Assembly (NCBI GenBank): GCA_021775005.1 | Contig: JAJFIK010000075.1 | Location: 11,086-75,085, forward strand | Length of the DNA stretch: 64,000 nucleotides | From: Rhodospirillales bacterium | GTDB taxonomy: Bacteria > Pseudomonadota > Alphaproteobacteria > JAJFIK01 | Direction of reading: 5' to 3' | In this document: positions 20,404-52,904 of the stretch, in pieces | How the letters are laid out: each line of letters starts with the position of its first letter | Numbering within the stretch: position 1 is the first letter of the stretch | Position numbers and translations under genes: made by a program | The notes under the pieces: model-generated | The model's input: the letters and a program-made list of their open reading frames with translations, nothing else | Told to the model about the DNA's origin: nothing | Database searches by the model: none

Positions 20404-20478
20404 TCGATTTTCGATCACCAATTGGGCATCGCGCGCCTTGAGGCAGCCAAGAGAATCGGAGTTGGCTTATGGGATAGT

Positions 20479-20561
20479 GAAGCGCTACCCAAAGCTGGAC
20501 CAGTTGGCGGTAGATTCTCCACACTGTTGAAGTGCTCCCCGAATTTGGACCACCCGGCTGG
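20479..20561. repeat. short intergenic repeat, two diverged ~33-nt units (copy 1)
   Basis: The units are GAAGCGCTACCCAAAGCTGGACCAGTTGGCGG... and GAAGTGCTCCCCGAATTTGGACCACCCGGCTGG. The same units recur at 40810..40902 in the opposite orientation and order. Confidence 0.6.
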
Positions 20562-20895
20562 AGTATTTTCCGGGGTTATAGCTCAGGGCATTTGTGTGCC
20601 ATCGGAGCGGTTTATCAGTGATACCGGCGGTGCAGCCCAAGCCCTATGCAAGTCCAATCAGCTCCAAGCGGCGGCCATGGCGCAACCATAATGCTGACAA
20701 AGGGGCGGCAAACGGCAGCTTACCGCCTTTTTCCTGGAAAACATAACGCGCGTTAACGCGGCGCGCCCTCGGGCTGCAATTCTAATTAATCTTTATCATT
20801 TATCCTGACGGCAACCGATCAATTTGCGTGGCGAATATTTTTCACTGCAACAGAATTCACTGCAGGCGCCTGAAGCGCGCCCCAAGGAGGCGAAC

Positions 20896-34933: not shown

Positions 34934-36238
34934 TCAGTCCGATGATTCGGCCGAAAATACGGGAATCACTACGGAGAACGTACTGCCTTTCCCCAGCGTG
35001 CTTTGAATGGAAAATTCGCCTCGGTGCCGGGCTACTATATGTTTTACGATTGCTAAACCCAGCCCTGTTCCGCCGCTGGTACGGGATTGGTTTTCGTCAA
35101 CCCGATAAAAGCGCTCGGTCAGTCGGGGAATATGTTCGCGCGCGATTCCGGGGCCGTGATCGGTAACGTCCACGCGAATCGCTTCCTCGTCACTTTCGTC
35201 CTGAACTTTGTGTTCGAGATAAACCGATACTTCGACGCGGTTGTTGCTACCACCATATTTCACCGCATTCATAATCAGGTTCTGGAACACCTGAAACATT
35301 TGGTCACGAGAAGCCAGCATGTTCGGCAGATCTTCCTCCGTGTGGAAAGCAATGCTCACCTTGCGCTCCTCGGCAACCGGCCTGACATTGGAAATGACCT
35401 CGGTGATCACCTCGTTTGTTTGAACGGTGTCGGAAGGTGGCACATGTTCATCAAGCTCAATGCGGCTCAAGGACAAGAGATCATCCACCAGCCGGCCCAT
35501 GCGCGTGGACTGCTTTTGCATAATTTCAAGAAACTTCTCGCGCGCTTCTTCATCATCGCGCGCAGGACCTTGCAGAGTTTCTATGAATCCAGCCAAAGAC
35601 GTCAGTGGTGTTTTTAGTTCGTGGCTTACATTGGCGATGAAATCCACGCGCATCTGGTCCACTCGTCGCGCCGCGGTCAAATCATGCAAAATGATCAACA
35701 CAAAAAGCCGCAGATCATCGCCCTTGCCAATCTGCATGGGAAGGCAATGGGCATGGGAATGGCTTTCCGTGGCCCCCGGCGTTTCAAACTCGACGGTTTC
35801 CGCCTCGCCACCATCATAAATCCGGGCGACCGCATCCAGTACCGCCGGTGTCCGCATCACCGCAGAGAGGATGCGGCCCGGCGCGGCATTGGCTATCGAT
35901 TGGTGGATATCTGCGTTTGATAAAACAACACGGCCATCCCCATCGAGAACAATCAGCGGATCGGGAAACTGCAAAAGAACGGCGCCTGCAACCTCATTCA
36001 CATGCGCCGCGGATCCCTCATCTTCGTCTTGCTTTGCAGCTGAGAAAATTCTACGGCTCTTGGATACCTGCAAAACGAAGGTAAGTGCCGAGAGGCCTAC
36101 AGCGCTGATAAGCAATGGCAGAAACGGCAACGCAGCAATCCAATAAAGGCCCAGATGCGCTGCGACTATGGCCCCGATCAAGAGCCACTCCCGTTGGAAA
36201 ATCGCATCCCGAAGAATGTTTTGCTTTGACTGTGCCGC
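34934..36238 (-). CDS. phoR: phosphate regulon sensor histidine kinase PhoR
   Basis: TM region, PAS, HisKA (VSHELKTPL) and HATPase. The start was chosen at MAAQSKQNIL; the ORF extends to 36424. Confidence 0.8.
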   Translation of the reverse strand, partial: AAQSKQNILRDAIFQREWLLIGAIVAAHLGLYWIAALPFLPLLISAVGLSALTFVLQVSKSRRIFSAAKQDEDEGSAAHVNEVAGAVLLQFPDPLIVLDGDGRVVLSNADIHQSIANAAPGRILSAVMRTPAVLDAVARIYDGGEAETVEFETPGATESHSHAHCLPMQIGKGDDLRLFVLIILHDLTAARRVDQMRVDFIANVSHELKTPLTSLAGFIETLQGPARDDEEAREKFLEIMQKQSTRMGRLVDDLLSLSRIELDEHVPPSDTVQTNEVITEVISNVRPVAEERKVSIAFHTEEDLPNMLASRDQMFQVFQNLIMNAVKYGGSNNRVEVSVYLEHKVQDESDEEAIRVDVTDHGPGIAREHIPRLTERFYRVDENQSRTSGGTGLGLAIVKHIVARHRGEFSIQSTLGKGSTFSVVIPVFSAESSD

Positions 36239-36371
36239 CATGCGCGTTGCCCGATGGCCCCTTGGTTTGAACCGCGCCGAATGGTGCGCCTTCATTCCTT
36301 GATAGCGGATTTCGCGAGCAGTGGCATCCCTTTTGCGCCAAATCGTCATTGGGTACTTGCCGTCTAGCCCA

Positions 36372-36405
36372 CAAAAAAGGAGGCGACCTGATACGCAGGC
36401 CGCCC
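36372..36405 (-). terminator. rho-independent terminator after the porin gene
   Basis: On the - strand: stem GGCGGCCTG...CAGGTCGCC followed by TCCTTTTTTGTG. Confidence 0.6.
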
Positions 36406-36432
36406 CTTCGCGAGGGTCATCCAAGTAGGGGC

Positions 36433-37593
36433 TTAGAAGACCAAACTATTTTCGATAAAGACTGCGGTTCCATCGAATTCATCTCGCACGGAATAAACAC
36501 CTGGATCTAGCTCGTAATAGTCACCATCAAGGGTCGTTATGCCAAAGCCAATTTGCATCCCAGGACCGTAGGCATAGGTCACACCGGCAATCAAACTTTG
36601 CGCCTCACGATCCATGTAGACGTCATCGCCATTATCGTAGGCGCTCCACTCGCGATCACCATAAGCAACGTTGAAAGACCAGGGACCTGTCTCATACGAT
36701 ACACCCACATCAAAACTGGTGTCGTCCTGATTAGAAGCATCGTCACCCAAGGTGGTCGAATCTTTGTAAGATCCCCCTAGGGTAAAACCGCCAAAGGCAA
36801 TCTGTGCTCCCAATGTCCACTCAGAGGGATCTTCATAGCCCGGGCCTTGTTCGCCTTGGCCGTAGCCACCCGAAAGGCCAAGGGCGACATTGTTTAGATC
36901 AATCTCCCATGTTCCAGATACTTCCCAATAGTTCCGGGCATACTCGGTCGTAACGCAGCCGGAAAACCCTGTGTCGTTTTTGCATGGGTTAGGGGTATAG
37001 GAAAATCCAAGCTGTAGTCCATTCATCTCAGGCGTGAAATAAATGAGCTTGATATCATCGCTTGAAAAGTCACCAACCGTGTCGATCGGATTGCGAAATC
37101 CGATAGGCCCGAACGGATCCAGATCCGCGTCGCTATGACCGTGTTCCTTGAAGATCAACGGTGCCACAACCGCCATCTGATCCATCGCGCCATCGTTTTG
37201 ACCAAACTGAAGGCGGCCAAAGCCACCGTCGAGCTGGATGTAAACTTCATCGATGGAATCTGCGTCGCCATCAACATCAGCATCATCTTCCAGTTCCAGC
37301 TCCGCCTTGAAGGAAACCCTCAAGCCGTTATCGAGTGTGGTCGAGCCACGGAAATGAACTTCTGAATCTGAACCAAAGTTGATTTCGTTATAGTCACCGA
37401 CAAGATCGTCCGAAAAATTGTTCATCGGATCTACTAAATCAGTGAACTGTTCCGTCCCGCTCACATCCGTGTAGGAGATACCGCCCACGTGATAACCACG
37501 CACGGTCAATTGAATCGGTTCTGCCGCAGCAGCCGGAAGAGCAATGGCCGCGACGGCGACCAATGCTGTTGTCCCTAGAAGTAGGTGTTTCAT
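36433..37593 (-). CDS. outer-membrane porin (beta-barrel, C-terminal F), possibly Pho-regulated
   Basis: Signal peptide MKHLLLGTTALVAVAAIALPAAA, a Gly/Asp/Tyr-rich beta-barrel-like sequence and a terminal F. RBS GGGAAATGAGGGG. The ORF extends to 37641. Confidence 0.7.
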   Translation of the reverse strand: MKHLLLGTTALVAVAAIALPAAAAEPIQLTVRGYHVGGISYTDVSGTEQFTDLVDPMNNFSDDLVGDYNEINFGSDSEVHFRGSTTLDNGLRVSFKAELELEDDADVDGDADSIDEVYIQLDGGFGRLQFGQNDGAMDQMAVVAPLIFKEHGHSDADLDPFGPIGFRNPIDTVGDFSSDDIKLIYFTPEMNGLQLGFSYTPNPCKNDTGFSGCVTTEYARNYWEVSGTWEIDLNNVALGLSGGYGQGEQGPGYEDPSEWTLGAQIAFGGFTLGGSYKDSTTLGDDASNQDDTSFDVGVSYETGPWSFNVAYGDREWSAYDNGDDVYMDREAQSLIAGVTYAYGPGMQIGFGITTLDGDYYELDPGVYSVRDEFDGTAVFIENSLVF

Positions 37594-37703
37594 AAGCCCC
37601 TCATTTCCCTTTTTGGAATTGTATTCTGGCTGCCTCGCCAAATTTGCCCTAGGCGATGGCCTCCGTTAGCAATTCGTTAATAGGCCGTCCGCATTTCAGT
37701 TTT

Positions 37704-37720
37704 GTGACGCTTGCATGACG
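37704..37720 (-). promoter_or_regulatory. Pho-box-like direct repeat CGTCAT-N5-CGTCAC upstream of the porin gene
   Basis: 11-bp periodicity, about 110 nt upstream of the porin start. The call is weaker than for the pst boxes. Confidence 0.3.
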
Positions 37721-37904
37721 TTTGTGAAATGCAGGCGAAATTACATCTGAAGTTGCCCCTCTCACTGCCCATGGGAGATCATTGGAAGCGGGATTCCGGC
37801 GGATTCGCGGTGCAATCCCCTGAAGTGTGAAACCCGCTGACCGCCACCCTGCCGTTGAACCAAGCTGCCGAACACTTGGCAAGTGATGGCAAGTTCTGGT
37901 CCTG

Positions 37905-38303
37905 TCAGCGGCAGGCAGCGGTTCCATAAGGTGCTGTCAGACTAAAGTGAACGGGTCTCCAAAATCTAAAGTAATCTCGAGACAATGCGCCAAGTTGACG
38001 CCATTCAGCCAAGGCTGTCGCGCGAGCTGATTTGAATGCTATTCGATGATTCAGATGGCGGTCATGATTGCAATGATTGTGTACGGACGAATGGATAGAG
38101 ATAAATTTCTGAAGCGACTTGCCGCTTCGAAACTTTGCCATCGCTCGCTCTCGTCGGCGGAAGGGCTGGTGCGCATTCTCCGCCCTGTTGTTATACCACC
38201 GTCCTGTTTCCTGGGCTTTCTCGTTACCGATAATCTTCAAGGCAGCGCGGTATGATCTAAACAGGCCGATCGCAATCGTTTTTGGTTGGCCGTACCGTTT
38301 CAT
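37905..38303 (-). pseudogene. IS6-family transposase C-terminal fragment (remnant)
   Basis: RSYRAALKIIGN...WYNNRAENAHQPFRRRERAMAKFRS...FISIHSSVHNH matches the IS6 (IS26-like) C-terminal pattern NNxxExxHxxxxRR...FKS. The N-terminal ~125 aa are missing. GC is locally lower. Confidence 0.6.
37930..37960. repeat. 31-bp repeat GGTGCTGTCAGACTAAAGTGAACGGGTCTCC (copy A)
   Basis: 32/35 identity to copy B at 40090..40120 in the same orientation. It sits at the 3' end of the IS6 fragment and begins GGTGCTGT, reminiscent of the IS6 IR GGCACTGTT. Confidence 0.55.
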
Positions 38304-38361
38304 AGCTTTCTTCAGAACCTTGAGAGCTGCCCATCACGCCACTCTGTTTATGCACGGCTCT

Positions 38362-40017
38362 TCACCTGGATGGTGGCAGTGCGCGATCCACAAGCGCTCT
38401 CGTTTCGATGCCATCGGGCAATGTGCCGTAGCAATCACCGCTACTCCCCGCGAGCCGGGTAGCGATATATGCATCTGCGATGAAGCCCGGACATCCCTCC
38501 AAAAGGATTGCGGCGGCAGCGAGTTTTGCAAGATCCTCCGTCAAGCGGCGGCAGCCGGCTTCACTCGCGGCATGCAATTGTTCCTTTACGCGGATCCACA
38601 TGGCATCAAAGTCTGAATGGCTTCCACGATGTTGGGCGAGCTCCTCCATCACCAGCTCGACCGCCTCCGGCTCGCGCTCCAAGACGCGCAAAACGTCAAG
38701 GCACATGACGGTGCCGGAGCCTTCCCAGATGGCATTGACCGGCATGTCGCGATAGATGCGCGCCATAAGTCCTGATTCCACATAGCCGTTGCCGCCCCAC
38801 ACCTCGATCGCTTCATAAGCCAGATTGGGTCCGCGCTTGGTCACCCAATACTTGATGGTCGGCGTCATCAATCGGAGATAGGCCGCCTCATGTTCGGAGG
38901 ATTGCCAACACTCCTGCGCACGGCAGAGGCGCAACGAGAGGGCGGTCGCGGCTTCGGATTCCAATGCCAAATCGGCGAGGACTGCACCCATTGCAGGCTG
39001 GTCCACAAGCGTCTTTTGAAACACCCGACGCCCGCGCGCATGATTTATGGCTTGCGCCACGGCTTGACGCATCAAACCTGCGGAGCCGAGCGCGCAATCG
39101 ATGCGGGTTAGATTGGCCATCACCATAATATTCGGTATGCCGCGACCTTCCTCCCCGATCAAAACCCCATAGGCGTCCCGAAACTGAACTTCGGACGAGG
39201 CGTTGGAGCGGTTGCCCAGCTTGTCTTTCAGCCTGACAAAATGAATGTTGTTGATCTCTCCGTCAGGGCCAAAGCGCGGGACAAGAAAAACTGAAAGGCC
39301 TGATGGGGCTTGCGCAAGAACAAGAAACGCATCGCACATGGGCGCGGACATAAACCACTTGTGCCCTGTAATGCGATAAGCAGCACCTGAGCCGCCGGCA
39401 CCTTCGGGTGTCGCGCGCGTTGTGTTGGAGCGAACGTCTGTTCCCCCTTGAACCTCCGTCATCCCCATGCCAAGCGTAACACCGGCCTTTTGGACATGCG
39501 GTTTTAACTCACCATCGTAATTGCGATTGATGACCTTGGGCAGCCATGTCTGAGCAAGGGATGGTTCGAGCTTAAGAGTGGGGATGGCTGCATGCGTCAT
39601 CGTAATGGGGCAGATGTGCCCACCTTCCACCTGTGACATGAGAAATAGCTTTGCCCCGCGCGCCACATGGGAACCCGGAGCTGCGCTCGCTTCGAAGCTC
39701 TGACAATGAATGCCCGCTCTTTTGCTCACTTCCATGAGGCGGTGATAAGCGGGATGAAACTCAACCGTGTCACTGCGCTGTCCGAAGCGATCAAGACTAT
39801 GGAGTGAGGGTGTGTGTGTATTAGCCTGCCGCCCCAGCTCATACATCGCCGCCGTTCCGACCTCCGCGCCGAAAGCCGTCAGCTCCTGTTCATACGTACT
39901 TGCCCCTTCGCGGGCGACGGCGGCCTGTAGCGCGGCATCGCTCGTATAGAGGTTCACATCTTCAAAGGTGGGAGGCTGGTTGAAAACCTCGTGCGTATCG
40001 AACTCGTCGATGGGCAT
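38362..40017 (-). CDS. aidB: AidB-like acyl-CoA dehydrogenase family protein
   Basis: The N-terminus HEVFNQPPTFEDVNLYTSDAALQAAVAREGA resembles E. coli AidB. An ACAD core follows, total 551 aa. Confidence 0.7.
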   Translation of the reverse strand: MPIDEFDTHEVFNQPPTFEDVNLYTSDAALQAAVAREGASTYEQELTAFGAEVGTAAMYELGRQANTHTPSLHSLDRFGQRSDTVEFHPAYHRLMEVSKRAGIHCQSFEASAAPGSHVARGAKLFLMSQVEGGHICPITMTHAAIPTLKLEPSLAQTWLPKVINRNYDGELKPHVQKAGVTLGMGMTEVQGGTDVRSNTTRATPEGAGGSGAAYRITGHKWFMSAPMCDAFLVLAQAPSGLSVFLVPRFGPDGEINNIHFVRLKDKLGNRSNASSEVQFRDAYGVLIGEEGRGIPNIMVMANLTRIDCALGSAGLMRQAVAQAINHARGRRVFQKTLVDQPAMGAVLADLALESEAATALSLRLCRAQECWQSSEHEAAYLRLMTPTIKYWVTKRGPNLAYEAIEVWGGNGYVESGLMARIYRDMPVNAIWEGSGTVMCLDVLRVLEREPEAVELVMEELAQHRGSHSDFDAMWIRVKEQLHAASEAGCRRLTEDLAKLAAAAILLEGCPGFIADAYIATRLAGSSGDCYGTLPDGIETRALVDRALPPSR

Positions 40018-40089
40018 GGAAGGCCTCCTTGGCTTGCCGATGGCAGCAAACTGTAGCTTAGACCACCACGAGACATTCGTCCAAGCGAC

Positions 40090-40120
40090 GGTGCTGTCAG
40101 ACCAAAGCGAACCGGTCTCC
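40090..40120. repeat. 31-bp repeat (copy B) in the aidB promoter region
   Basis: GGTGCTGTCAGACCAAAGCGAACCGGTCTCC, a direct repeat of copy A. Confidence 0.55.
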
Positions 40121-40156
40121 TCTGACCATGCCTCACCACCCGTTTATGCCTTCGTC

Positions 40157-40687
40157 CTACCCTTCGTTGAAGAAGGGATCGGGGATGGCAGGGTTCCTAA
40201 GCTTTGCTGCGGCTCCAGCGCCGGAGACCGGGAGGCCTGCCGGGTCAAGGAGCCCGATCTGGACCAGAACATTCGCCTGGTCCCACATGATATGCTCATA
40301 GCTGACTTTGCCCTCGTCAATGCCAACGATCACCACAAAGACCACTTCGACAAATTTGCCGGTGGGTTTGATACCGGGAAGCATCCAATCGATCGTTGTC
40401 GTGTGGGTAAAGGAAATCACCAGTTCGTCGACGAGCTGCTCCTCGCTATAGGTGCGCGAGATCGTTTCAAATTTTACGTCAGGCGGGAAAAACTGACCGA
40501 CCAGCCGCTTTGAATAAAACGTTCGCACAGCGCCCGGCCCCTGCCCTCCCACCATTGTGGGTACATTTACGATGTGCGGGTTGGGCGACATAGTGGCCAG
40601 CGTCTTGTCGAGGTCGCCGGCGAGTTCGGCGTCCATATGGGCACCGAAGATGGCGTCGAGTTTTTCGATAAGGGCAGGGTCGGTCAT
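40157..40687 (-). CDS. SnoaL-like/NTF2-like domain protein
   Basis: About 176 aa. The start was chosen at MTDPALIEKL. The ORF extends to 40771. Confidence 0.45.
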   Translation of the reverse strand: MTDPALIEKLDAIFGAHMDAELAGDLDKTLATMSPNPHIVNVPTMVGGQGPGAVRTFYSKRLVGQFFPPDVKFETISRTYSEEQLVDELVISFTHTTTIDWMLPGIKPTGKFVEVVFVVIVGIDEGKVSYEHIMWDQANVLVQIGLLDPAGLPVSGAGAAAKLRNPAIPDPFFNEG

Positions 40688-40809: not shown

Positions 40810-40902
40810 GGAGAATCTACCGCCAACTGGTCCAGCGTTGGGTAGCGCTTCAGGTTTTTGGTCGGGACACCAGCCGGGTGGTCCAAATTCGGGGAGCACT
40901 TC
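40810..40902. repeat. short intergenic repeat (copy 2; units in opposite orientation and order relative to 20479..20561)
   Basis: GGAGAATCTACCGCCAACTGGTCCAGCGTTGGGTAGCGCTTC...CCAGCCGGGTGGTCCAAATTCGGGGAGCACTTC are reverse complements of the copy-1 units. Confidence 0.6.
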
Positions 40903-40961
40903 ACTGGGTTGTTGTGCTGTGCTCGTTTGAGACAATTTGGTTCGGAGTGCATGATCACCGA

Positions 40962-42692
40962 TCAAGTTGAAGCTGCAACACTACCGGTGTTGCCCTTAAC
41001 CGAATCGTGATCGATTTTCCTGCGCCACCAATCTAGGAAAGGCTTTGGTGCCAACGGTCGACAATAATGAAAACCCTGTGTGCCGGAACATCCAAAATCA
41101 TGCAGCACTGTTGATAGGTCCGAACTCTCGATTCCCTTTACTATGACGTCCATCTCAAATGCCTTACCGAGTCCAATCAATGCCCCAACTATGGAATCGT
41201 CTGAATCGCCTTCGCGATTCCATTTATGGTTGATCTTTACACGGTCAAACGGAAGGCTTTTTTGATCCACTAAGGATATTGCGCCCATACCAAAGTTATC
41301 CAACACAAGTTTAACTCCAAGCGTTTTTAGCCGCAAAAGTTCTGCGGTCACAATATCATTGTGACCCGTAATTGTGTCTTCAGAAAACTCCAATTCCAAG
41401 CAATTCAGGTTTACGTCGGAGTCAAAGACAGAGCCTCTTATGACTTCATAAAGATCACCCTTGCGAAGTTGAACTAACGAAATATTTATCGATACAAATA
41501 TTTTTGGAAGAGACATTTCATTCCACTCTCGAATGTGTTGGCACACTTGCTGGATTAGCCACGCGCCAATGGGGTGCACGAGACCGCTGTTCTCCGCAAC
41601 TTCCAAAAATTCAACTGGAAGTATCAAACCCCTTTCCGGGTGTTCCCATCGTAGTAGCGCTTCAACACCAATTACACTTCCACTCATTGGGTCAACAACC
41701 GGTTGAAAATGGACACGCAATTCGTCAGAATTGATTGCCTTAGCCAAGTCAGAAGCCAGTTCTTTTTGCATCTGCAATTTAGCGTTCATTTCACTCTCAT
41801 GAAATTGGACGGTTCCGCGGCAAATGTCCTTTGCGCGATAGAGTGCCATGTCCGCTTGTTTCAAAAGTAGATCCGAATTCTTATCGCCATGAGAGTACAT
41901 CGAAATCCCCACGCTAGCACCTGACTGAATTGACAAACCCTGAATGTCATATGGGTCACTCAATGCAGAAATAATTTTCCCCGCGAGAACTTCAGCACCG
42001 TGCGCATTATCTAAGTTGGTCGCCAAGACTGCAAACTCGTCACCACCCAAACGGGCGACGGTGTCTGTCTCCCGAACACACTTTTTCAATCGGTTCGATA
42101 CCTCAACGAGTAACGCATCCCCGACCAAATGGCCGTGCACGTCGTTGACATTTTTGAAATGATCCAAATCCAGAAGCAAAATGGCCAATGACCGCCCAAT
42201 GCGGTCCGCCTGTGATATCCCCTCATTCAACTGAGCCGCAAAATACGACCGATTTGCTAGACCGGTTAAGACATCATGTCGAGAAAGCTTTGTGAGCCGC
42301 TCCTCGTGGAAATGTCTTTCTTTCGCATAACGAATTGCACGCTCCAATAACGGAGCGTCTAGCCTTCCTTTGACTAAGTAGTCCGCTACACCAACCTCAG
42401 ATGCCTGAAGGTCCAGTTCAAAATTCTCCATGCCCGTAAGTATAATGAAAGGTGGTTGGTTTCCGAGGCGAATGGCTTCTCTCACCAAATCAAGGCCACT
42501 TCTCTCCCCGAGATGGTGGTCAACAAGGCATACATCAAAATCAAATTGATTCAGGGCTTCTTTAGCATCGCCCCAATCACTGATCCATTTAAGTTTAAAA
42601 TTTCCACCAAAGGCGTCACTCAACAAGCTTTTTGTAAGAAGAAAATCGTCTTCGTCATCCTCAATTAACAGAATTTTGTTTGAGCCTTTCAT
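40962..42692 (-). CDS. response regulator with GGDEF and EAL domains
   Basis: REC (ILLIEDDEDD), then GGDEF (RLGGDEF) and EAL (EALLRW) motifs. Low GC. Confidence 0.8.
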   Translation of the reverse strand: MKGSNKILLIEDDEDDFLLTKSLLSDAFGGNFKLKWISDWGDAKEALNQFDFDVCLVDHHLGERSGLDLVREAIRLGNQPPFIILTGMENFELDLQASEVGVADYLVKGRLDAPLLERAIRYAKERHFHEERLTKLSRHDVLTGLANRSYFAAQLNEGISQADRIGRSLAILLLDLDHFKNVNDVHGHLVGDALLVEVSNRLKKCVRETDTVARLGGDEFAVLATNLDNAHGAEVLAGKIISALSDPYDIQGLSIQSGASVGISMYSHGDKNSDLLLKQADMALYRAKDICRGTVQFHESEMNAKLQMQKELASDLAKAINSDELRVHFQPVVDPMSGSVIGVEALLRWEHPERGLILPVEFLEVAENSGLVHPIGAWLIQQVCQHIREWNEMSLPKIFVSINISLVQLRKGDLYEVIRGSVFDSDVNLNCLELEFSEDTITGHNDIVTAELLRLKTLGVKLVLDNFGMGAISLVDQKSLPFDRVKINHKWNREGDSDDSIVGALIGLGKAFEMDVIVKGIESSDLSTVLHDFGCSGTQGFHYCRPLAPKPFLDWWRRKIDHDSVKGNTGSVAAST

Positions 42693-42708
42693 AGGTATCT
42701 CTATTCCT

Positions 42709-43155
42709 TCAACTGGGAGGCATCTCTACAACTTGCAGCCAATAATTCTTCAAAGCCTTGATTACATCAACTAACCCTTCAAATGTAACCGGTTTGGCAA
42801 TAAAGGAATTTGCCCCCAAATTGTATGTATGCAGAAGATCTTCTTCCGACTTGGAAGTAGTTAGTATCACTAAAGGAATGTGTCGGAGCGCGGGGTTTGA
42901 TTTAATTTCTGCCAATGCTTCACGACCATCCATGCGCGGCATATTGAGGTCCAGCAGGATTAATCCAGGTTGAGCGCGCTTTGGAGGTTTTGCATAGCTG
43001 CCCTGCTTGAGAAGATAATCCAACAATTCAACCCCGTCCTCAACAAACTCAATCGGATTGGCAAGTTTGGCTTCTTCAAATGCTTCCTTGATCAGGAATC
43101 GATCATCCGGATCGTCCTCAGCGATCAATATTGTCAAACCGATTTTATTCTGCAT
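42709..43155 (-). CDS. single-domain response regulator
   Basis: ILIAEDDPDDRFLI...ILLDLNMPRMDG. The start was chosen at MQNKIG. The ORF extends to 43230 and would overlap the kinase. Confidence 0.75.
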   Translation of the reverse strand: MQNKIGLTILIAEDDPDDRFLIKEAFEEAKLANPIEFVEDGVELLDYLLKQGSYAKPPKRAQPGLILLDLNMPRMDGREALAEIKSNPALRHIPLVILTTSKSEEDLLHTYNLGANSFIAKPVTFEGLVDVIKALKNYWLQVVEMPPS

Positions 43156-45463
43156 CAATTTTCTCTTGTTTTTCTGATTCGGTTTCAATTGGTAATGATA
43201 CTGTAAACGAGCTCCCCTCTCCAGACGCACTCGAAGCGAAAATCAAACCCCCATGCTGTTCAACGATCTTCTGACAAATTGCGAGCCCGATACCTGTACC
43301 TTCGTATTTTGACCTTCCATGCAGGCGTTGAAATATTCCGAAAATGCGTGTGACATATTTTTGATCAAAGCCAATACCGTTATCTACAATTGAAATATTA
43401 TAAAAACGAGTTGATCCAGAACCTTGACTCATGTCATTTTGATCAACAATTGCGCTCGATATGCACACCCTACAAGATACATCCTCGCGGCGGTATTTCA
43501 ATGCGTTGCCAATTAGATTTTGGAATAATTGCCGCATTTGAAGGGGAGCAGCTGTCACAACCGGCAATTTTTTGACTTCAACTTCCGCATTAGCTTCAAT
43601 TATTTGAAACTCAAGATCGTTTACCACCTCCCGGACTAAAACATCCAAATCGATGGTTGCGAACTCTTCGCCTTTCGTTCCGATACGAGAGTATTCTAGA
43701 AGATCATTTATCAATTTCTGCATTCGTTTGGTCGCTTGATGCATTCGTGCCAAGTAGTCCAGGCCCTCTTCGTCAAGCGCCGACTCATATTTCGTTCTCA
43801 ACCGGTCTGAGAAAGCTTGAACTTTGCGCAATGGTTCTTGAAGGTCATGGGACGCTACATATGCGAAATGCCCGAGCTCTGCATTGGATTTCTCCAATCG
43901 CAAAACAGTTTGATCAAGTTCCCTTTCCGCCGCCACCTGATCGGCAATATTGCGAACCACACCGGTGATCGTATCCTCACTACCTTGATTGATGATCAGA
44001 TCTATCTCAAAGGTGGCGCCCGTCTTGTGCAGGCCCGTCATAACTCGTCGCTTCCCGATGACTCCCGCGCCCGAACCATTGGCAAACTTTTCCATATGGG
44101 ACGTATGAGCAATTGCATACTTCTTGGGCATAAGCATTTCTACGTTCTTGCCAATGACCTCCTCTGCGGCATATCCAAAGATTGTCTCGGCGCTTGGATT
44201 GAAGCCCAATATGTTGCCTGCTTGATCTGTGGTAATGATACCGTCAGGCACCGTCTCGATTACACTGCGGAGTTTCGCCTCGCTCGCCTGAAGTTGACGT
44301 TCGCGCTCCTGTAATTGCTTTGTCGAACTTTCAAGTTTTTCGTTAGACGATCTGATCCTGGCTGTCATGTCACGGGCGATGCCACGGGCGCGCCTTTGTA
44401 GAGAGGCCTGGGAAGCCACGACATAGAAAAGAAAGATGTTGACGATTACTCCAACCACCCCAATCAGAAGAGGCAATCTTGCCGCAGCAACATCGAGGGC
44501 GCTTTGATCTGCTAGAAAGCGTACAGTCCAGTTCCTGCCTTGCAATGAAATTTGTGTTGTCGCCATATGGACATTGTCTGCCGACACAGCTGACATCTCG
44601 GTGGTCTCCCTGCTATTGAACATGAGGTTATCGGAGGTCGTGTCACCGTCGAAAACTTCAAAGCCAATTGCCCCCGGGTTGTCTCCGAGAATACCCTCCA
44701 TCAAATCGGCCATCCTGAAAGGCGCGTAAACCCATCCCCGAAATGCCGCTCGTCTTTCCTCTACAGAGCTAACTGGCATATCAGATTCATATAGTGGTAC
44801 ATAGGTCAGGAATCCCCGTTGAACATCGTCATCCGTTTCCTGGACAAGCGTAATGATTCCGGAGATTGAGGCTAGACCGGTATCACGTGCACGGGTCATC
44901 GCCGCGCGGCGCATGTCATTGGACCACATATCGTAACCGAACGCACGTTGGTTCCGCCAATCGAAGGGTTCCAAAAAAATGATAGCACTGTATTCCTCAC
45001 GCACTCCCTCTGGCCGTATTAGATAATCCGGGAACCCTTCCGCCCGGATGGCGTTTATATGTGATTGTTTGTCTTCAGGACTAACAGGGATGCTGTAGCC
45101 CAAACCCTGAATACCCGGCCATCTCGTATCAACGTCAAGACGGGCAACATACTGTTGCCATTGGTTCCTATTTACATCTCCAATGACATTCAAGAAACTG
45201 ACACCACCCCAGAGTACGTCTTCATAGACATCCATCCGTTGACGAATGGCCGACGAAATTTCATTTGCTCTTGTGTTGAATCGTAGTTCAGAGACCCTGT
45301 CGACAAGCTTGTCCGACGCCCACCAGGCAACAATTGTCAAGATTATACCGCACAACAGTACTCCCCAGGCCGTATAGGAATTGTGCACCCAATCAGAATC
45401 AGATTGTCTAAAACTCTTTTCCATCCTTAAGCCTTCGCTAGGCTGCTTTTCATATCCTGCCAA
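43145..45463 (-). CDS. sensor histidine kinase with periplasmic CHASE domain, PAS, HisKA and HATPase
   Basis: CHASE-like motifs WPGIQGLGY and EEYSAIIFLEP...AFGYDMWS. TM, PAS, H-box ASHDLQEPLRK and G-boxes follow. Confidence 0.75.
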   Translation of the reverse strand: MAGYEKQPSEGLRMEKSFRQSDSDWVHNSYTAWGVLLCGIILTIVAWWASDKLVDRVSELRFNTRANEISSAIRQRMDVYEDVLWGGVSFLNVIGDVNRNQWQQYVARLDVDTRWPGIQGLGYSIPVSPEDKQSHINAIRAEGFPDYLIRPEGVREEYSAIIFLEPFDWRNQRAFGYDMWSNDMRRAAMTRARDTGLASISGIITLVQETDDDVQRGFLTYVPLYESDMPVSSVEERRAAFRGWVYAPFRMADLMEGILGDNPGAIGFEVFDGDTTSDNLMFNSRETTEMSAVSADNVHMATTQISLQGRNWTVRFLADQSALDVAAARLPLLIGVVGVIVNIFLFYVVASQASLQRRARGIARDMTARIRSSNEKLESSTKQLQERERQLQASEAKLRSVIETVPDGIITTDQAGNILGFNPSAETIFGYAAEEVIGKNVEMLMPKKYAIAHTSHMEKFANGSGAGVIGKRRVMTGLHKTGATFEIDLIINQGSEDTITGVVRNIADQVAAERELDQTVLRLEKSNAELGHFAYVASHDLQEPLRKVQAFSDRLRTKYESALDEEGLDYLARMHQATKRMQKLINDLLEYSRIGTKGEEFATIDLDVLVREVVNDLEFQIIEANAEVEVKKLPVVTAAPLQMRQLFQNLIGNALKYRREDVSCRVCISSAIVDQNDMSQGSGSTRFYNISIVDNGIGFDQKYVTRIFGIFQRLHGRSKYEGTGIGLAICQKIVEQHGGLIFASSASGEGSSFTVSLPIETESEKQEKIDAE

Positions 45464-46075
45464 TCAAGATACGTCGCTTCAATTCCTGCATCCATATACT
45501 TGCTATTTTGCCTGGCAGCTTCCGAGTTTTTCGCCGGTATCCAGATAGCTTTTCATTCTTTGGTCATGCTCTTTATTGTCCGGTTGACCCCTCAGCATGT
45601 TAACGCGTTTGCCAACAACTTCGTCCGATGAATTGCGAATGCAAAACGGCAAGCATCAATCCCACCAAGAGAATCGCCCGTGGCTTTGTCAAATTCCTAG
45701 CAATGGTGATGTCCCAAGTGAGGTTCAAAGCATGTCGCTGTTTTCCTAATCAGCTTGACTATTTCAAGTTAACCGCGCGTTAACTCAATCTAGAAGTTCC
45801 AGGATGCAGATTTGATCAACTGGACAAAGACGTGTCCCTGCCAAAACTAGATTCCGATGTACCGTGGTGCAGTCCGCCCAAATGCGAGAGCGACATGATT
45901 GCACCTAAGAGTCTCACTTCACCCCATCGGGAGAGTTCTTGCTCATTGAGGATTTGGATCGAAACTGCAGCCATATCCACTGACCGATGATCAATATAAC
46001 CCTGAGCATCACGCACAATCATGCGGCAACACCCTAAATTGGCACACGGATAGAGTTTTGATGGGAGCAGGTGCG

Positions 46076-46438
46076 TCAGAAAACGGCAGATGCTGGCGTG
46101 CCAGCTAGCAGGAGCGCACCGCAAGCAACTTCAAAGCCAATATTGATTATGTTTTGGCGGGAAAGGGTCTGGTCAAAGGCAAAAGAAACAAAGCGTCCCA
46201 GCGCTGTGGTGAGCCAAATGATACCCGCCATGGCAAATGCCAAGGGCTCCATTGTGATAAGGGGCACTGCGCCAAGGCCAATCCAGAGCCCGCCAAAAGA
46301 CGCCCGAAATTCTGAACGCCCCTCAAGCCTCGCTGCTTCAAGGCGCACCAACTCGGCAGCTTTGTGAGGAAGCAAGAGTCCGTAAAAGCCAAGGCCGACA
46401 GTCACAACGGCTGCAATAATGTTCAGAGCATCAAACAT
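46076..46438 (-). CDS. small integral membrane protein (DUF4345-like)
   Basis: About 120 aa with 3-4 TM helices. An 8-nt overlap with the upstream DUF1365 gene. Confidence 0.4.
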   Translation of the reverse strand: MFDALNIIAAVVTVGLGFYGLLLPHKAAELVRLEAARLEGRSEFRASFGGLWIGLGAVPLITMEPLAFAMAGIIWLTTALGRFVSFAFDQTLSRQNIINIGFEVACGALLLAGTPASAVF

Positions 46439-47213
46439 GACGAATATTCCCTTTGGCCCCCTGCACTTCAGTGTCCGAACTACCGACGAACGGCACACCT
46501 TTGAGCCACAGCAGCACAGCGTTCCAGTGAATGGAAAAAAGCGTGCCAAACATGGAACTGGGCAGAAGGCCGAAGTGCGAAACGAGTTTTCGGTCCGACA
46601 GGGGTTCCAGTCGGACCCGCAATGAAGTGCTAAGAACCGTTCCTTTCTCAGTTTGATACTGGATCACCAGTTGAAAAATATCGCGCGAAACGGAGAGGCG
46701 GAAGTAATACTCGCCCTCAATGCGGTTGAATGGCGAGACGTGCATTTCCTTGCGCGCGGCAAATAGGTGGGTTTCGGCGTCAGGGTCCGTAACGAGGAAA
46801 CTGTAATGACGCCGCTCCCCAAAGGTTGAATTTACTTCAAAGATGACGCCAATCAGATCGTCCTTTGCATTGCGGCAAAGATAACAACTGATCGGGTTGA
46901 AAGCGATTCCGCAAACGCGCGGGTAAGTCACAAGCTCGACACGGGTAATGTCTGCTGCCGATCCCAATTCAAGCATCTGAGTTCGGACAAACTCACTTAT
47001 GGTTCTACTGTTGTCGTCGCCATAGTCAGAGGGGCGCAGCGAGATAAAATTCGGTCCATCCACGGAAAACAGCATCAGCTTCTGATCGAGCCGGTCGAGT
47101 TCCGTCAGATCGAGACGCACGACCGGGTAGGATACGTTGAGCACGTGCACGCGCGGCGACACACGCCGATGCATAACTTTCCCTTTCCCAATGGCACTGC
47201 GCAGTTCGCTCAT
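46431..47213 (-). CDS. DUF1365 family protein
   Basis: The start region GKVMHRRVSPRVH is typical of DUF1365. It follows the FAD oxidoreductase, as in Rhodobacter singlet-oxygen operons. Confidence 0.6.
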   Translation of the reverse strand: MSELRSAIGKGKVMHRRVSPRVHVLNVSYPVVRLDLTELDRLDQKLMLFSVDGPNFISLRPSDYGDDNSRTISEFVRTQMLELGSAADITRVELVTYPRVCGIAFNPISCYLCRNAKDDLIGVIFEVNSTFGERRHYSFLVTDPDAETHLFAARKEMHVSPFNRIEGEYYFRLSVSRDIFQLVIQYQTEKGTVLSTSLRVRLEPLSDRKLVSHFGLLPSSMFGTLFSIHWNAVLLWLKGVPFVGSSDTEVQGAKGNIRHV

Positions 47214-48610
47214 CAGTTCGCCAAATTCAATCGGGCCTGCGATGCGCCCAGAGATGACGGGTGATTGGGCCAGTAGATGCGATCCATCGCCCTTTCGCTG
47301 GCCCAGGGGCGCGCGGGTGCCCCCAAGGCTTCGGCCACAGCAAGACCCGACTGAAGGCCATCTTCGTGAAATCCGTATCCCCAATAGGCGCCGCAGAACC
47401 ATGTGTTTTGCACGCCTTGCAAGGTCCAAAGCTTACGCTGAGCTTTCATGGCGGCGGCGTCAAAGACGGGGTGGGTGTAAGTGAAGCTATTGAACACGTG
47501 CTCTGGGGCGGGCGGTGTTGAGGGGTTCAAGGTGACCAGGAGCGGCGTTTTGGTGGGTATCGATTGGAGCCGATTCATCCAATAGGTCAGACTGATGCTG
47601 CTCTCCTCCGTATCACCCTCACCGCTTAGATAATTCCAGCTCGACCATGCGTTACGGCGCTGGGGCATGAAATCTGTATCGCGGTGCAAGTAAACCATAT
47701 TCTCCTGATACCCTATAGCGCCGAGAAGGTTTTTCTCATCGCACGTGGGGCGATCCAAAAGAGCCAAAGCTTCATCGCTGTGACAGGCGAAGATGACGTG
47801 ATCAAATTCCTGTGGTGGTCGGGCCTCAAAGTGAATGATGTGTTTGTCGCCTGTCCGCTCGACAGTGACGATACGGGCATTAAGAACGGTATCACACCTC
47901 GTATCTTTAATCAGTCTACTGACATATTCGCGGCTGCCGCCAAATACTGTGCGCCATTCAGGCCGCCCACCGAAACGCATCAGGCCATGGTTTTCGAAAA
48001 ACTTGAGGAAGGACCGCGCCGGAAACTGCCGCATGGTCTCCACCGGCGATGACCAAATCGCCGCACACATGGGTAGAATATGATCGTGCCGAAATGTCCG
48101 GGAGAAACCTTTGTCATCGAGATAGTTTTCAAGGGACTTGTGCTCATCATCACCCGATAGCGCCGCCAAATCTTGTGGCCCATCGCGGTAAAGCCGCAGA
48201 AGGTCGGCAATCATGCGCCACATGCGGTGGCGAACCACATTTCGTCGCTGGGCAAAAAGGCCGCTTAAGCCCGATCCGGAATATTCAAAACTGCCGTCGC
48301 CCAAGGACGCTGCAAAACTCATGTCACTGGGGATTGTGGGGACGCCAAGGGTTTTGAAAAGCCCCGTCAAGTTGGGATAGTTCGTCTCGTTATAGACAAT
48401 GAACCCCGTATCAACAGGGAATACACCGTTCTCGCATTCCACTTCCGTGGTGTGAGAGTGGCCTCCAAGCCGGTCATTACGCTCAAACAGCGTCACATCA
48501 TAAAGAGTGCCCAAACGCCAGGCCGCCGCAAGGCCGGAGATGCCGGAGCCCACAATAGCCAGGCGCGGTCGGCGGCCTTGTGACGTGGGGAATGAGATGA
48601 CTTCGGCCAT
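47213..48610 (-). CDS. NAD(P)/FAD-dependent oxidoreductase (amine oxidase-like)
   Basis: Dinucleotide-binding motif LAIVGSGISGLAAAWRL...ERNDRLGGHSHT. AGAGGA lies 8 nt before the ATG at 48610. Confidence 0.75.
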   Translation of the reverse strand: MAEVISFPTSQGRRPRLAIVGSGISGLAAAWRLGTLYDVTLFERNDRLGGHSHTTEVECENGVFPVDTGFIVYNETNYPNLTGLFKTLGVPTIPSDMSFAASLGDGSFEYSGSGLSGLFAQRRNVVRHRMWRMIADLLRLYRDGPQDLAALSGDDEHKSLENYLDDKGFSRTFRHDHILPMCAAIWSSPVETMRQFPARSFLKFFENHGLMRFGGRPEWRTVFGGSREYVSRLIKDTRCDTVLNARIVTVERTGDKHIIHFEARPPQEFDHVIFACHSDEALALLDRPTCDEKNLLGAIGYQENMVYLHRDTDFMPQRRNAWSSWNYLSGEGDTEESSISLTYWMNRLQSIPTKTPLLVTLNPSTPPAPEHVFNSFTYTHPVFDAAAMKAQRKLWTLQGVQNTWFCGAYWGYGFHEDGLQSGLAVAEALGAPARPWASERAMDRIYWPNHPSSLGASQARLNLAN

Positions 48611-48645
48611 GTGCGGCATCCTCTTTGGGGTAACTGATGCCTCTT

Positions 48646-48672
48646 CTACGGATGCGAGCCGTCATCGGATCA
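48646..48672 (-). promoter_or_regulatory. candidate sigma-E-type promoter TGATCC-N16-CGTAG for the FAD-oxidase/DUF1365 operon
   Basis: On the - strand, TGATCCGATGACGGCTCGCATCCGTAG, about 30 nt upstream of the oxidase start. Confidence 0.5.
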
Positions 48673-48684
48673 AAAGAAAAAAGG

Positions 48685-48711
48685 TGATCCAATTGGCAAC
48701 GCCTTTCGTAT
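48685..48711 (+). promoter_or_regulatory. candidate autoregulatory sigma-E promoter TGATCC-N16-CGTAT upstream of rpoE
   Basis: TGATCCAATTGGCAACGCCTTTCGTAT. I recall this as matching the TGATCC -35 / CGTA-containing -10 of Rhodobacter RpoE promoters. Confidence 0.5.
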
Positions 48712-48788
48712 GGGTTTGTATGTACGCGCAAGACCTACATTTCACGCCGAGCCCATTTGGCGTTGCCCCCCAAGGGAAGGGAGCCTCT

Positions 48789-49373
48789 GTGCCGCCTGAA
48801 GACTCTGATGCGCAGGATCAGGACGTTGCGAGCGAGCAACGGTCTTGCGTGCAAAGGATCGCCGTTGCACGGGATCAGGCCGCATTCACGACACTTTTTG
48901 ATTATTTTGGGCCGCGGGTGAAAAGCTTTTTGATGTCGCGGAGGCTGAACCCCCAGACGGCTGACGATCTGGCCCAGGAAGTGATGCTCACCATCTGGCG
49001 CAAGGCCCATCAGTATCAACCGGACAAGGCAAGTGTATCTACCTGGGTCTATACAATCGCCCGGAACCGTATGATCGATGACCGGCGCGTGGAAGCCAAG
49101 CGCGCACGGCTCGACACGAGCGATCCCAGTCAGGAACAGCCCGCACCCCCAACACCCGAAGAAGTTCTTCAGCGGTCTTCTGACGCATTGATCGTCACAT
49201 TAGCCCTTCAAAGCCTGCCGCAATCGCAGGAAGAAATTATGCGCCTGTCGTTTATGGATGGGCAAAGCCACCATGAGATTGCCGAACGATTGGGATTGCC
49301 TTTGGGGACCGTAAAATCTCGAATTCGTCTCGCCCGACAACGACTTTCTGATTATTTTGGAGCTCGCTCATGA
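48789..49373 (+). CDS. rpoE: ECF RNA polymerase sigma factor (RpoE-like, group IV sigma-70)
   Basis: Sigma-70 region 2 (AQEVMLTIWRKAHQYQ) and region 4 (EEIMRLSFMDGQSHHEIAERLGLPLGTVKSRI). GTG 48789 was chosen because GGGAAGGGAG lies 6 nt upstream. The ORF extends to 48507. Confidence 0.75.
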   Translation: MPPEDSDAQDQDVASEQRSCVQRIAVARDQAAFTTLFDYFGPRVKSFLMSRRLNPQTADDLAQEVMLTIWRKAHQYQPDKASVSTWVYTIARNRMIDDRRVEAKRARLDTSDPSQEQPAPPTPEEVLQRSSDALIVTLALQSLPQSQEEIMRLSFMDGQSHHEIAERLGLPLGTVKSRIRLARQRLSDYFGARS

Positions 49374-50023
49374 CCCACCAAACCGCCCACACAGCGCTTG
49401 GCGAAGAATGGTTCGTGGACTATGCCGCGGGAAACCTGTCGCCAGCCTATGCCGCAGTTGCCGAGTGCTTTCTTGATCTCAATGAGGATTGCCGAGAAAC
49501 CGTCGATGAGCTTGAACGCGTTGGCGGTGCACTGCTTGATACGGCGGATGCGGGTGCGGGTCTTTCTGTTGTCGCGGCTGACTTGCTTGCGCGAGAAGAC
49601 GATGCACCGGAATCCCAAGGGCAGGAAAGCCAATGCCCTGATTACATCCCAAACTCTTTGCGCGAGAAATTTGATCTGGACCGCAATGGCGTCAAATGGA
49701 CATTCCTGGGGCCAGGCCTGCAAAAGGCGCTTTTGTGGAAGGGCAGCAATGATGATCGTCTTTGGCTTTTAAAAGCAGAACCCGGCGTTGCCATTCCCAA
49801 TCACACCCATCGCGGCGCGGAGCTTACCCTCGTGCTGAAAGGTGAATTCAGGGATGGCGAGGATGTCTATGGCGTGGGTGACGTGGAAGAGGCCGACCAT
49901 GACCTGACCCACACCATCAAAATCTCGTCGGAAGAGAGTTGCATTTGCCTTGCCGCCACCAAAGGGCGCCTGATATTTCCAGCGCCTCTTATCAAGCTGA
50001 TGCAAGTATTCCTGGACATCTGA
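49370..50023 (+). CDS. chrR: ChrR-family anti-sigma-E factor (N-terminal zinc-binding ASD, C-terminal cupin)
   Basis: ATGA overlap with rpoE. The C-terminal cupin reads LWLLKAEPGVAIPNHTHRGAELTLVLKGEFRDGEDVY. Confidence 0.75.
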   Translation: MTHQTAHTALGEEWFVDYAAGNLSPAYAAVAECFLDLNEDCRETVDELERVGGALLDTADAGAGLSVVAADLLAREDDAPESQGQESQCPDYIPNSLREKFDLDRNGVKWTFLGPGLQKALLWKGSNDDRLWLLKAEPGVAIPNHTHRGAELTLVLKGEFRDGEDVYGVGDVEEADHDLTHTIKISSEESCICLAATKGRLIFPAPLIKLMQVFLDI

Positions 50024-52064: not shown

Positions 52065-52067
52065 GGT

Positions 52068-52514
52068 TTACTTTAGTCTGACAGTACCATCTGCAAAACT
52101 AATCCCAGCCGCTGGAAATGTTCTTCTGATGCCTGCATCACGATTACACAAGAATCTAGTTATTGGTAGGGACACCGAGCCGGACGTCTTGTCGATTAGC
52201 CGATTGGTCAACTTGAGCAGGGTTGTCTTGCCGCATCTGGGGGGGGTGAGATGAACGATTGTCCCTCCATCCTCGACATTGGGCGTGATATTTCGAACGG
52301 CCCATGTCTCAGCCCCACTCGGATCAATCGCATTCATCGGATCATTACCCACATAGGCATACATGTTCATCTGATCCTCGTAGCCGATGGGGTCCGTCTG
52401 ATAGAAGCGCCCCAGGGGGCCGGAGTACATCCGCGCGCGGTAGTAATAAAGATTGGTTTCTGCGTCATAGCGCCGCCCGGTAAAGCGTAAAGAATCGCCC
52501 CCCGCATCATCCAC
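52068..52514 (-). pseudogene. orphan RHS-repeat-associated core fragment with a variable C-terminal tip
   Basis: [53 protein letters not shown] is the RHS core signature. Only 14 aa precede it and about 80 aa of lower-GC tip follow. No upstream RHS body. Confidence 0.6.
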
Positions 52515-52657: not shown

Positions 52658-52675
52658 GTGGCGGAGAGACAGGGA
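52658..52675. repeat. 18-bp exact direct repeat of the tRNA-Ser 3' end (TGGCGGAGAGACAGGGAT)
   Basis: Identical to 52815..52832, which is the 3' acceptor/T-arm of tRNA-Ser. This att-like duplication lies 139 bp away. Confidence 0.6.
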
Positions 52676-52782
52676 TGTGCTCGGCTTGATAAGCCAAGCC
52701 TGCACTGCCGTTGCTAATCTCGCTGGCGCTCGAAAAGCGTCCGGTCGAACGGCGTTCAAATCCGCCCGGCCCTGCCTCATAA

Positions 52783-52814: not shown

Positions 52815-52904
52815 TGGCGGAGAGACAGGGATTCGAACCCTGGGAACGCTCGCGCGCTCAACGGTTTTCGAGACCGCCCCGTTCGACCACTCCGGCATCT
52901 CTCC
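52815..52904 (-). tRNA. tRNA-Ser(CGA): tRNA-Ser (anticodon CGA), class II with a long variable arm, encoded CCA
   Basis: Hand-folded. Acceptor GGAGAGA/TCTCTCC, D-arm CCG-GAGTGGTCGAA-CGG, anticodon stem GCGGT/ACCGT with loop CTCGAAA, long variable arm, T-arm CAGGG-TTCGAAT-CCCTG, discriminator G plus CCA. Confidence 0.85.

Follow-up and report, generated by a model that had tools for sequence, protein, structure and literature searches.

Two remnants of an IS6-family insertion sequence (IS) that lie on either side of a single gene raise the question of whether the gene was brought in by these elements or was already in place when they inserted. The case examined here comes from a contig of a Rhodospirillales bacterium (JAJFIK010000075.1, positions 11,086 to 75,085). 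In this 64-kb stretch, hereafter the window, an intact aidB-type acyl-CoA dehydrogenase gene stands between a truncated IS6-like transposase at its 3' end and a copy of the element's terminal repeat upstream of its start codon. The initial annotation of the locus had read this arrangement as a decayed pseudo-compound transposon that delivered or rearranged aidB. Our analysis confirms the IS6 origin of both remnants and points to a different history, in which these elements most likely did not bring in aidB. The account that we consider probable is one of independent, decayed IS6 insertions in the intergenic DNA around a resident aidB gene. All counts of relics, repeats and transposase sequences given below refer to the window.

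The transposase remnant downstream of aidB

The sequence next to the 3' end of aidB, termed relic A (37930–38333, minus strand), represents the 3' half of an element of the IS6 family, namely a transposase pseudogene and the right inverted repeat (IRR), as identified with Pfam, NCBIfam, tblastn and blastn. The minus-strand open reading frame (ORF) at 37905–38303 matches the Pfam domain DDE_Tnp_IS240 (PF13610; E 3.8e-12, 47 bits against a cutoff of 27), and the alignment spans positions 53–138 of the 139-position profile, that is, its last two thirds. The match of the same ORF to the NCBIfam model transpos_IS6 (NF033587; E 1.6e-10) falls under the full-length cutoff because just the C-terminal half of the protein is present. 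In tblastn, positions 38333–37992 correspond to residues 117–230 of the 232-residue transposase of the nearest intact copy, L014, from an alphaproteobacterial metagenome-assembled genome (MAG; OFTM99), with 74% identity. At the nucleotide level, blastn aligns 38333–37930 with the L014 element at 76% identity across 404 nt. Relic A is the 404-bp right-hand part of an element of approximately 820 bp, and the truncated, C-terminal IS6-like transposase described by the initial annotation is confirmed.

The N-terminal half of the transposase, in which the relatives carry a WH(L/M)DE motif, is absent; we take this motif, judging from the aligned protein sequences, to hold the first catalytic Asp, which would hence be missing from relic A. 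The second catalytic Asp is gone, VTD having been replaced by AIG in the protein alignment. The catalytic Glu motif NNRAEN is retained, while the rest of the DDE triad is not intact. The stop codon has also been lost, so that the frame continues through the IRR as far as 37905. On the aidB side, 28 nt (38334–38361, minus strand) separate the end of the IS homology from the aidB stop codon (38362), and this junction marks the truncation point. Searches with tblastn and blastn revealed no further transposase fragments and no intact transposase gene in the window. The GC content of the fragment, 50.0% against 55.2% for the window, lies at the 9th percentile. It is close to certain that relic A is an inert IS6-family pseudogene remnant.

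An independent contig of 2.7 kb (L015, Logan SRR15505515) is 100% identical to window positions 35440–38154. Its end at 38154 falls inside the IS6 fragment, which would fit an assembly break at a repeated IS sequence in the sample concerned.

The 31-bp repeat as the right end of an IS6 subgroup

The outer end of relic A is a 31-bp sequence (37930–37960, plus strand; outer tip first, GGTGCTGTCAGACTAAAGTGAACGGGTCTCC) that corresponds to the IRR of intact relatives. Exactly two copies of the 31-mer are present in the window, the other one lying at 40090–40120 (GGTGCTGTCAGACCAAAGCGAACCGGTCTCC); both are on the plus strand and are identical at 28 of 31 positions, and each is one or two changes off the family consensus. 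No such pair was found in 100 dinucleotide-preserving shuffles of the window. IS6 terminal repeats are characterized by a GG tip together with cTGTt and caaa motifs (PMC7986276), and this hallmark is present in the sequence GGTGCTGTCAGACyAAAG, which is found at both copies and at a third site, relic C, described below.

The identity of the repeat was established from its position in related elements. A tblastn search of the fragment against plasmids returned 874 records, mostly labelled as IS6 family transposase. The best plasmid matches, with 60% identity, were located on plasmids of Sulfitobacter (sp. SK012) and Mesorhizobium (mediterraneum), whose elements are approximately 818 bp long. The right ends of these elements are GGTGCTGTCAGACgAAtGCGAACCaGTCTC in Sulfitobacter and GGTGCTGTCAGACCAATTCGAACCAGTCGC in Mesorhizobium; read from the tip, GGTGCTGTCAGACGAATGCGAACCAGTCTC and GGTGCTGTCAGACCAATTCGAACCAGTCGC correspond to the 31-mer of the window. 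In addition, GTDB species genomes were scanned with a 23-nt IRR pattern, GGTRCTGTCAGACYAAAGYRAAC, which identified nine sites, five of them in Hyphobacterium and one each in Cucumibacter, Parerythrobacter, Oceaniovalibus and an alphaproteobacterial MAG. At seven of the nine sites, the IRR directly follows the 3' end of a near-full or recognisable IS6 transposase; one of the other two follows a transposase remnant, and one has no detectable transposase. Counting genomes or plasmids, nine others have IS6 elements closed by the same sequence of about 30 bp directly past the transposase 3' end.

Similarity among these copies persists for about 30 bases inward from the tip and then breaks down. The conserved length of the IRR is set by plasmid blastn with the 43-bp sequence that contains the upstream copy (relic B, see below), in which the match covers positions 1–31 only. 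Because the 31-mer closes the elements of intact relatives, it represents the IRR of one alphaproteobacterial IS6 subgroup, and its assignment as the right inverted repeat of the relics in the window is close to certain. Elements of this subgroup are frequent in marine alphaproteobacteria, among them Hyphobacterium. The resemblance to IS6-family terminal repeats noted in the initial annotation, as well as the recurrence of the 31-mer with three mismatches in the same orientation, is thus borne out, and the sequence is tied to IS6 ends in relatives rather than being an unrelated dispersed repeat.

A 43-bp remnant upstream of aidB

The upstream copy of the IRR belongs to relic B (40090–40132, minus strand), in which the IRR (40090–40120) is fused to a tip of the left inverted repeat (IRL) type (40132 down to 40115, GGCATGGTCAGAGGAGAC), detected by a consensus search and a weight matrix. 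Oriented like relic A, it is located 72 nt upstream of the aidB start codon (ATG at 40017), a distance previously put at 65 nt, and 24 nt downstream of the stop codon (40157–40159) of a SnoaL-like gene. Its layout is GGCATGGTCAGAGGAG-ACCGGTT-CGCTTTGGTCTGACAGCACC, in which the two tips point outward and nothing of the interior remains between them.

The IRL consensus, derived from the left ends of intact relatives (GGNNCTGTCAGAGGAAAC), found four sites in the window, namely the three IRR copies and 40132–40115 on the minus strand, which overlaps the inner end of the IRR of relic B in the correct inverted orientation. When six left ends were combined into a 20-nt weight matrix, the same site ranked fourth among approximately 128,000 window positions, after the three IRR copies, and scored 17.0 compared with 14.2 for the next background site. 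The 12-nt portion of the tip that lies outside the 31-mer ranked seventh of 127,978 when considered alone, and the chance of finding such a tip at this spot is roughly 1e-3.

The structure of intact relatives suggests how relic B may have arisen. Their left and right ends are inverted repeats over about 12 bases only, and a short motif, ACYGGTT, occurs in direct orientation just inside both the IRL and the IRR of L001, L002 and L006 (as ACTGGTT in L001, ACTAGGTT/ACTGGTT in L002 and ACCGGCTT/ACTGGTT in L006). The 43-mer is exactly the product that would be expected of a deletion between these short subterminal direct repeats. The motif would thereby offer a simple route to ghosts of 40–55 bp that keep both ends and no interior. 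When metagenomes were searched with a gapped pattern, one convincing ghost of about 54 bp was found, with a different junction (L018 3510–3557, contig Ga0181560_10000007), which indicates that such scars arise occasionally and independently.

Relic B might instead be a very small miniature inverted-repeat transposable element (MITE), that is, a non-autonomous IS6 derivative that inserted alone and was mobilised in trans by a full-length copy. Retention of both outward-facing tips would fit this origin, as would the IS6-family MITEs of 227 and 336 bp on record (PMC7986276) and the similar short IRL–IRR element in L018. However, the window contains a single copy with no 8-bp duplication, and a conserved base of the IRL tip is not retained. 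The 43-bp sequence was found neither in the plasmid collection by blastn nor in metagenomes with a specific pattern, and the junction of the metagenome ghost differs, as independent deletions would give. We consider a MITE origin extremely unlikely and favor a deletion scar.

Several additional features proposed for relic B were rejected. Its extension to about 62 bp through a match of 'TTTATGCC' to the transposase stop region was attributed to chance, as the match is not common to other relatives. A promoter scan found no outward hybrid promoter directed from the IRR toward aidB, and as a potential hairpin or terminator the 43-mer folds no better than shuffled sequence (z = -0.14). With no promoter-like site and an unremarkable fold, a regulatory role for relic B is not indicated.

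A third IS6 relic in the window and a possible fourth

Relic C (52066–52088, minus strand) is a solo 23-nt IRR tip, GGTACTGTCAGACTAAAGTAAAC, that is identical to relic A at 21 of 23 positions and inverted with respect to relics A and B. It begins one base (G at 52065) past the stop codon of a MipA gene, which is complete, since the Pfam MipA match reaches the last profile position. For the same reason, an extension of relic C by AAAATCT was rejected, these bases being C-terminal codons of MipA. On its other side, relic C provides the last codons and the stop of a junk ORF (52068–52514, minus strand), in which an RHS-core tail (TIGR03696, 2.5e-22) is fused to a Walker A fragment of an ABC-transporter ATPase. 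This ORF, ending within relic C, forms a patch of gene debris beside a tRNA gene.

A possible relic D (37898–37925, plus strand; tip GGTCCTGTCAGC) lies just outside relic A in the same orientation. It is a strongly decayed IRR-like sequence, matching at 21 of 31 positions with three gaps. Its 12-nt tip ranks sixth of 127,978 with the weight matrix, and its local alignment score is attained by 0.5% of 40-nt windows. These values are suggestive only of a fourth IS6 relic, for which the tandem partial IRRs of L011 and L013 may provide an analogy. Other IRL- or IRR-type ends, at 27880, 17168 and 2398, were discarded, as they lie within coding sequence and match just the 7–12-nt core.

Elements of the same subgroup elsewhere show comparable debris. 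A partial IRR tip stands in tandem with a full IRR in L011 (about 6929–6980; 25 nt) and L013 (7687–7740; 23 nt), and L009 contains a transposase remnant at 6461–6765. The tandem arrangement points to an IS that has repeatedly inserted at its own pre-existing ends or into them. The break point at 23–25 nt recurs in L011 and L013, and relic C likewise measures 23 nt.

The aidB gene and its loci in relatives

The aidB gene (38362–40017, minus strand) is intact, encodes 551 amino acids and is preceded by an AAGGAGG ribosome-binding site. Its product contains the AidB_N domain (PF18158, 2.5e-59) and the middle and C-terminal acyl-CoA dehydrogenase domains (PF02770 and PF00441), and it belongs to the AidB family according to NCBIfam PRK11561 (NF008594; 568.9 bits against a cutoff of 545). 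Throughout its length it is collinear with an equally long homologue that is 84% identical. The GC content of the gene is 58.0% and its GC content at third codon positions (GC3) is 63%; pstC and the SnoaL-like gene both have a GC3 of 65%, and the amine oxidase gene has one of 62.5%. The composition of aidB is thus native-like. The truly atypical DNA is a low-GC block at 40962–46430 (44–50% GC against 55%), situated beyond relic B from aidB. The lower local GC content remarked on in the initial annotation therefore applies to the IS fragment and not to aidB.

The three closest sequenced homologues of aidB are 84%, 74% and 74% identical, and their loci (L003, L005 and L020) contain neither IS6 repeat tips nor transposase sequences. 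The genes neighboring aidB differ in all four relatives seen, and those of the three closest also differ from one another, so that synteny shows neither an empty nor a conserved site. Inspection of aidB in related genomes, as recommended by the initial annotation, thus yields three loci free of IS6 tips and transposase, in none of which the gene has the neighbors that it has in the window.

The 84% relative (L003) and the window share just the aidB ORF and a module of approximately 240 nt, which includes a tRNA-Ser gene together with the 138 nt that follow it (L003 7480–7731; about 78% identical). The apparent collinearity of tRNA-Ser and aidB in the two genomes is weakened by the isoacceptors, CGA in the window and GGA in L003, and was not counted as orthologous linkage. 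Synteny through a porin gene was likewise set aside as uninformative, the porin belonging to a multi-copy paralogous family. Within the module, the tRNA-Ser(CGA) gene of the window (52815–52904) is accompanied by an 18-nt perfect direct repeat of its 3' end (52659–52676 and 52815–52832, minus strand). The repeat lies 138 nt downstream of the tRNA gene, with a terminator-like hairpin in between, and in L003 it matches the 3' end of that genome's own tRNA-Ser(GGA). This arrangement looks like an attachment-site (att)-type scar or a small tRNA-linked module; an Rfam search returned the tRNA only.

The comparison with L003 also bears on whether the region was reshuffled by IS6-driven rearrangement, either by a replicative inversion or by deletion of adjacent DNA. 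On this reading, relics A and C would be inverted sister copies left by an intramolecular event, and the segment from 38 to 52 kb, including aidB, would have been inverted. The two relics are mutually inverted and share a T at IRR position 19 that occurs in 0 of 9 genomic copies; similarity to the aidB locus of L003, the nearest relative, stops at the aidB stop codon, beside relic A; and the DNA adjoining relic C is a jumble of gene fragments. However, the shared T is a single CpG-to-TpG change that could have occurred in parallel, and the inner flanks that would hold the diagnostic inverted 8-bp duplication are deleted. Moreover, the relative resembles the window in that a single strand carries both aidB and the tRNA-Ser gene, and synteny in the clade is too poor to call inversions. 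Such an inversion or another IS-driven rearrangement is distinctly unlikely as the main explanation of the locus, and a role of the IS in rearranging the flanks of aidB is plausible.

Was aidB carried by the elements?

One argument for mobility of aidB is geometric. Relics A and B share the same orientation, as the initial annotation had recognized, and closely flank one complete gene, which could make them the remains of an IS6-type pseudo-compound transposon or translocatable unit whose two copies later decayed. Functional IS6 compound transposons always have direct copies (PMC7986276), and the lack of a conserved neighborhood for aidB among its closest homologues is what would be expected of a mobile gene. 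The target-site evidence, however, does not bear this out. No 8-bp target duplication was found for any pairing of ends (outer flanks: relic A, TTCCATAA; relic B, CAAGCGAC and TCACCACC; relic C, ATCTGCAA), including the flanks outside the A–B pair, TTCCATAA and TCACCACC, for which the initial annotation had suggested this check.

Other observations point the same way. The composition of aidB is native-like, and IS6 sequence is absent beside aidB in the three relatives. The IRRs of relics A and B differ at 3 of 31 positions and so need not derive from sister copies, and there is no obvious selection for a tight capture of aidB. No functional IS flanks the gene, an intact transposase gene being found nowhere in the window. 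As three or four IS6 relics lie within 14 kb, moreover, agreement of two of them in orientation is a one-in-two event and calls for no special explanation. A pseudo-compound transposon is thus formally compatible with the locus but unsupported, and we judge it unlikely. The claim that it delivered aidB is not supported. The combined proposal, in which the pair is a fossil pseudo-compound transposon that moved aidB, as a metabolic or adaptive-response gene, in an environmental marine alphaproteobacterium and the 43-bp fusion is still recognisable by transposase in trans, is highly unlikely. If it were true, it would extend IS26-style gene capture beyond resistance genes and make relic B the smallest IS6-derived element.

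We therefore return to independent insertions around a resident aidB as the probable history of the locus. Under this scenario, relics A and B would stem from copies of the element that inserted on the downstream and the upstream side of aidB, respectively, and relic C from a copy that landed beside MipA at a distance of about 12 kb. Ordinary deletions would then have eroded all copies, halting at the borders of functional genes. In relic A, the left half would have disappeared as far as a point 28 nt from the aidB stop codon; relic B may have lost its interior by slippage or recombination between the direct repeats ACYGGTT, leaving 43 bp with both tips; and relic C would have been reduced to its 23-nt tip. 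Both the order of these insertions and deletions and the mechanism proposed for relic B are reconstructions from the present state of the sequence. The distances that separate the relics from the adjacent stop codons, 28 nt for relic A, 24 nt for relic B and one base for relic C, each beside an intact gene, fit decay that halts at gene borders.

Several points weigh against this history. Two IS6 relics in the same orientation, 72 nt and 28 nt from a single intact gene, do constitute the geometry of a pseudo-compound transposon. As the neighbors of aidB are not conserved, the residence of the gene at this site is not shown by synteny, and the 138-nt shared module follows different tRNA-Ser isoacceptors, CGA in the window and GGA in L003. 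The IRL half of relic B amounts to about 12 independent bases (p ~1e-3) and has a G in place of the T of the conserved cTGTc motif. Once copies of IS6 elements have recombined with each other, matching target duplications are frequently missing. Obvious duplications were not seen in the intact relatives inspected either, and their absence at this locus is for that reason weak evidence.

Nothing at the locus can transpose now. A complete IS6 element of approximately 700–890 bp with both repeats was not found; relic A measures 404 bp and lacks the IRL, relic B 43 bp and relic C 23 nt.

Surrounding genes and implications for annotation

One stretch of the DNA between relics B and C is the low-GC block at 40962–46430, which is probably signalling DNA acquired horizontally, its products being a response-regulator-GGDEF-EAL protein, a single-domain response regulator and a CHASE-PAS histidine kinase. 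The following segment, 46431–50023, is of native composition and contains genes for a DUF1365 protein, a flavin amine oxidoreductase, an extracytoplasmic function (ECF) sigma factor and a ChrR-type cupin anti-sigma factor, a set that we take to be a stress regulon of the RpoE-ChrR type. Two modules, each about 40 nt long, TGAAGCGCTACCCAAAGCTGGACCAGTTGGCGGTAGATTCTCC and TGAAGTGCTCCCCGAATTTGGACCACCCGGCTGGAGT, occur at both 20478–20564 and 40810–40903, where they are 97–98% identical, on opposite strands, 20 kb apart and swapped in order. They represent an intergenic repeat family of the repetitive extragenic palindromic (REP)/MITE-like type, and their second copy (40810–40903) lies at the edge of the low-GC block.

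For annotation, positions 37930–38333 should be marked as a transposase pseudogene and not as a gene, the repeat upstream of aidB should be treated as an IS scar rather than a regulatory site, and the stretch from 37.9 to 52.1 kb can be described as having been hit repeatedly by one IS6 subgroup. Beyond annotation the finding carries little weight, the relics being ordinary genome debris from an unnamed member of a well-known IS family. Its small curiosities are the unusually long conserved right end of about 30 bp, the direct subterminal motif and the 43-bp ghost.

Comparison with known systems

The relics resemble the established members of the IS6 family (IS26, IS6100, IS257/IS431 and IS240; PMC7986276) in their single IS240/IS6-type DDE transposase, in the length of their relatives, about 820 bp, and in the tendency to form clusters and to lie in direct orientation. 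They differ in that the conserved right end of the subgroup extends over about 30 bp rather than 14–20 bp, and in that the two ends of its elements match over approximately the first 12 bases only, beyond which they have a short motif in common that is directly and not inversely oriented. In addition, what remains in the window are dead fragments without a left half, target duplications or the full set of catalytic residues. The terminal repeat of IS26 is GGCACTGTTGCAAA, and the window repeats likewise start with GG and contain the CTGTc and cAAA motifs.

The closest known elements are those of Hyphobacterium, L014, Sulfitobacter sp. SK012 and Mesorhizobium mediterraneum, with 60–74% protein identity over the surviving half and 76% nucleotide identity to L014. 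They have a near-identical IRR, and partial or tandem IRR relics also occur beside copies of the subgroup in L009, L011 and L013. Unlike the relics in the window, these elements are full length or nearly so, with frames of 232–235 amino acids.

Pseudo-compound transposons of the IS26 type, such as Tn4352, likewise place two directly oriented IS6-family ends or elements around one passenger gene. In the window, however, neither copy is intact, 8-bp duplications are absent, the passenger is a housekeeping-type acyl-CoA dehydrogenase gene of native composition, and no second occurrence of the unit is known.

Finally, relic B shares with the IS6-family MITEs of 227 and 336 bp (PMC7986276) the possession of both IS ends with no reading frame between them. 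It differs from them in its length of 43 bp, its single copy, its lack of a target duplication and its degenerate tip, features that make it look like the scar of a deletion and not like a miniature element capable of moving.

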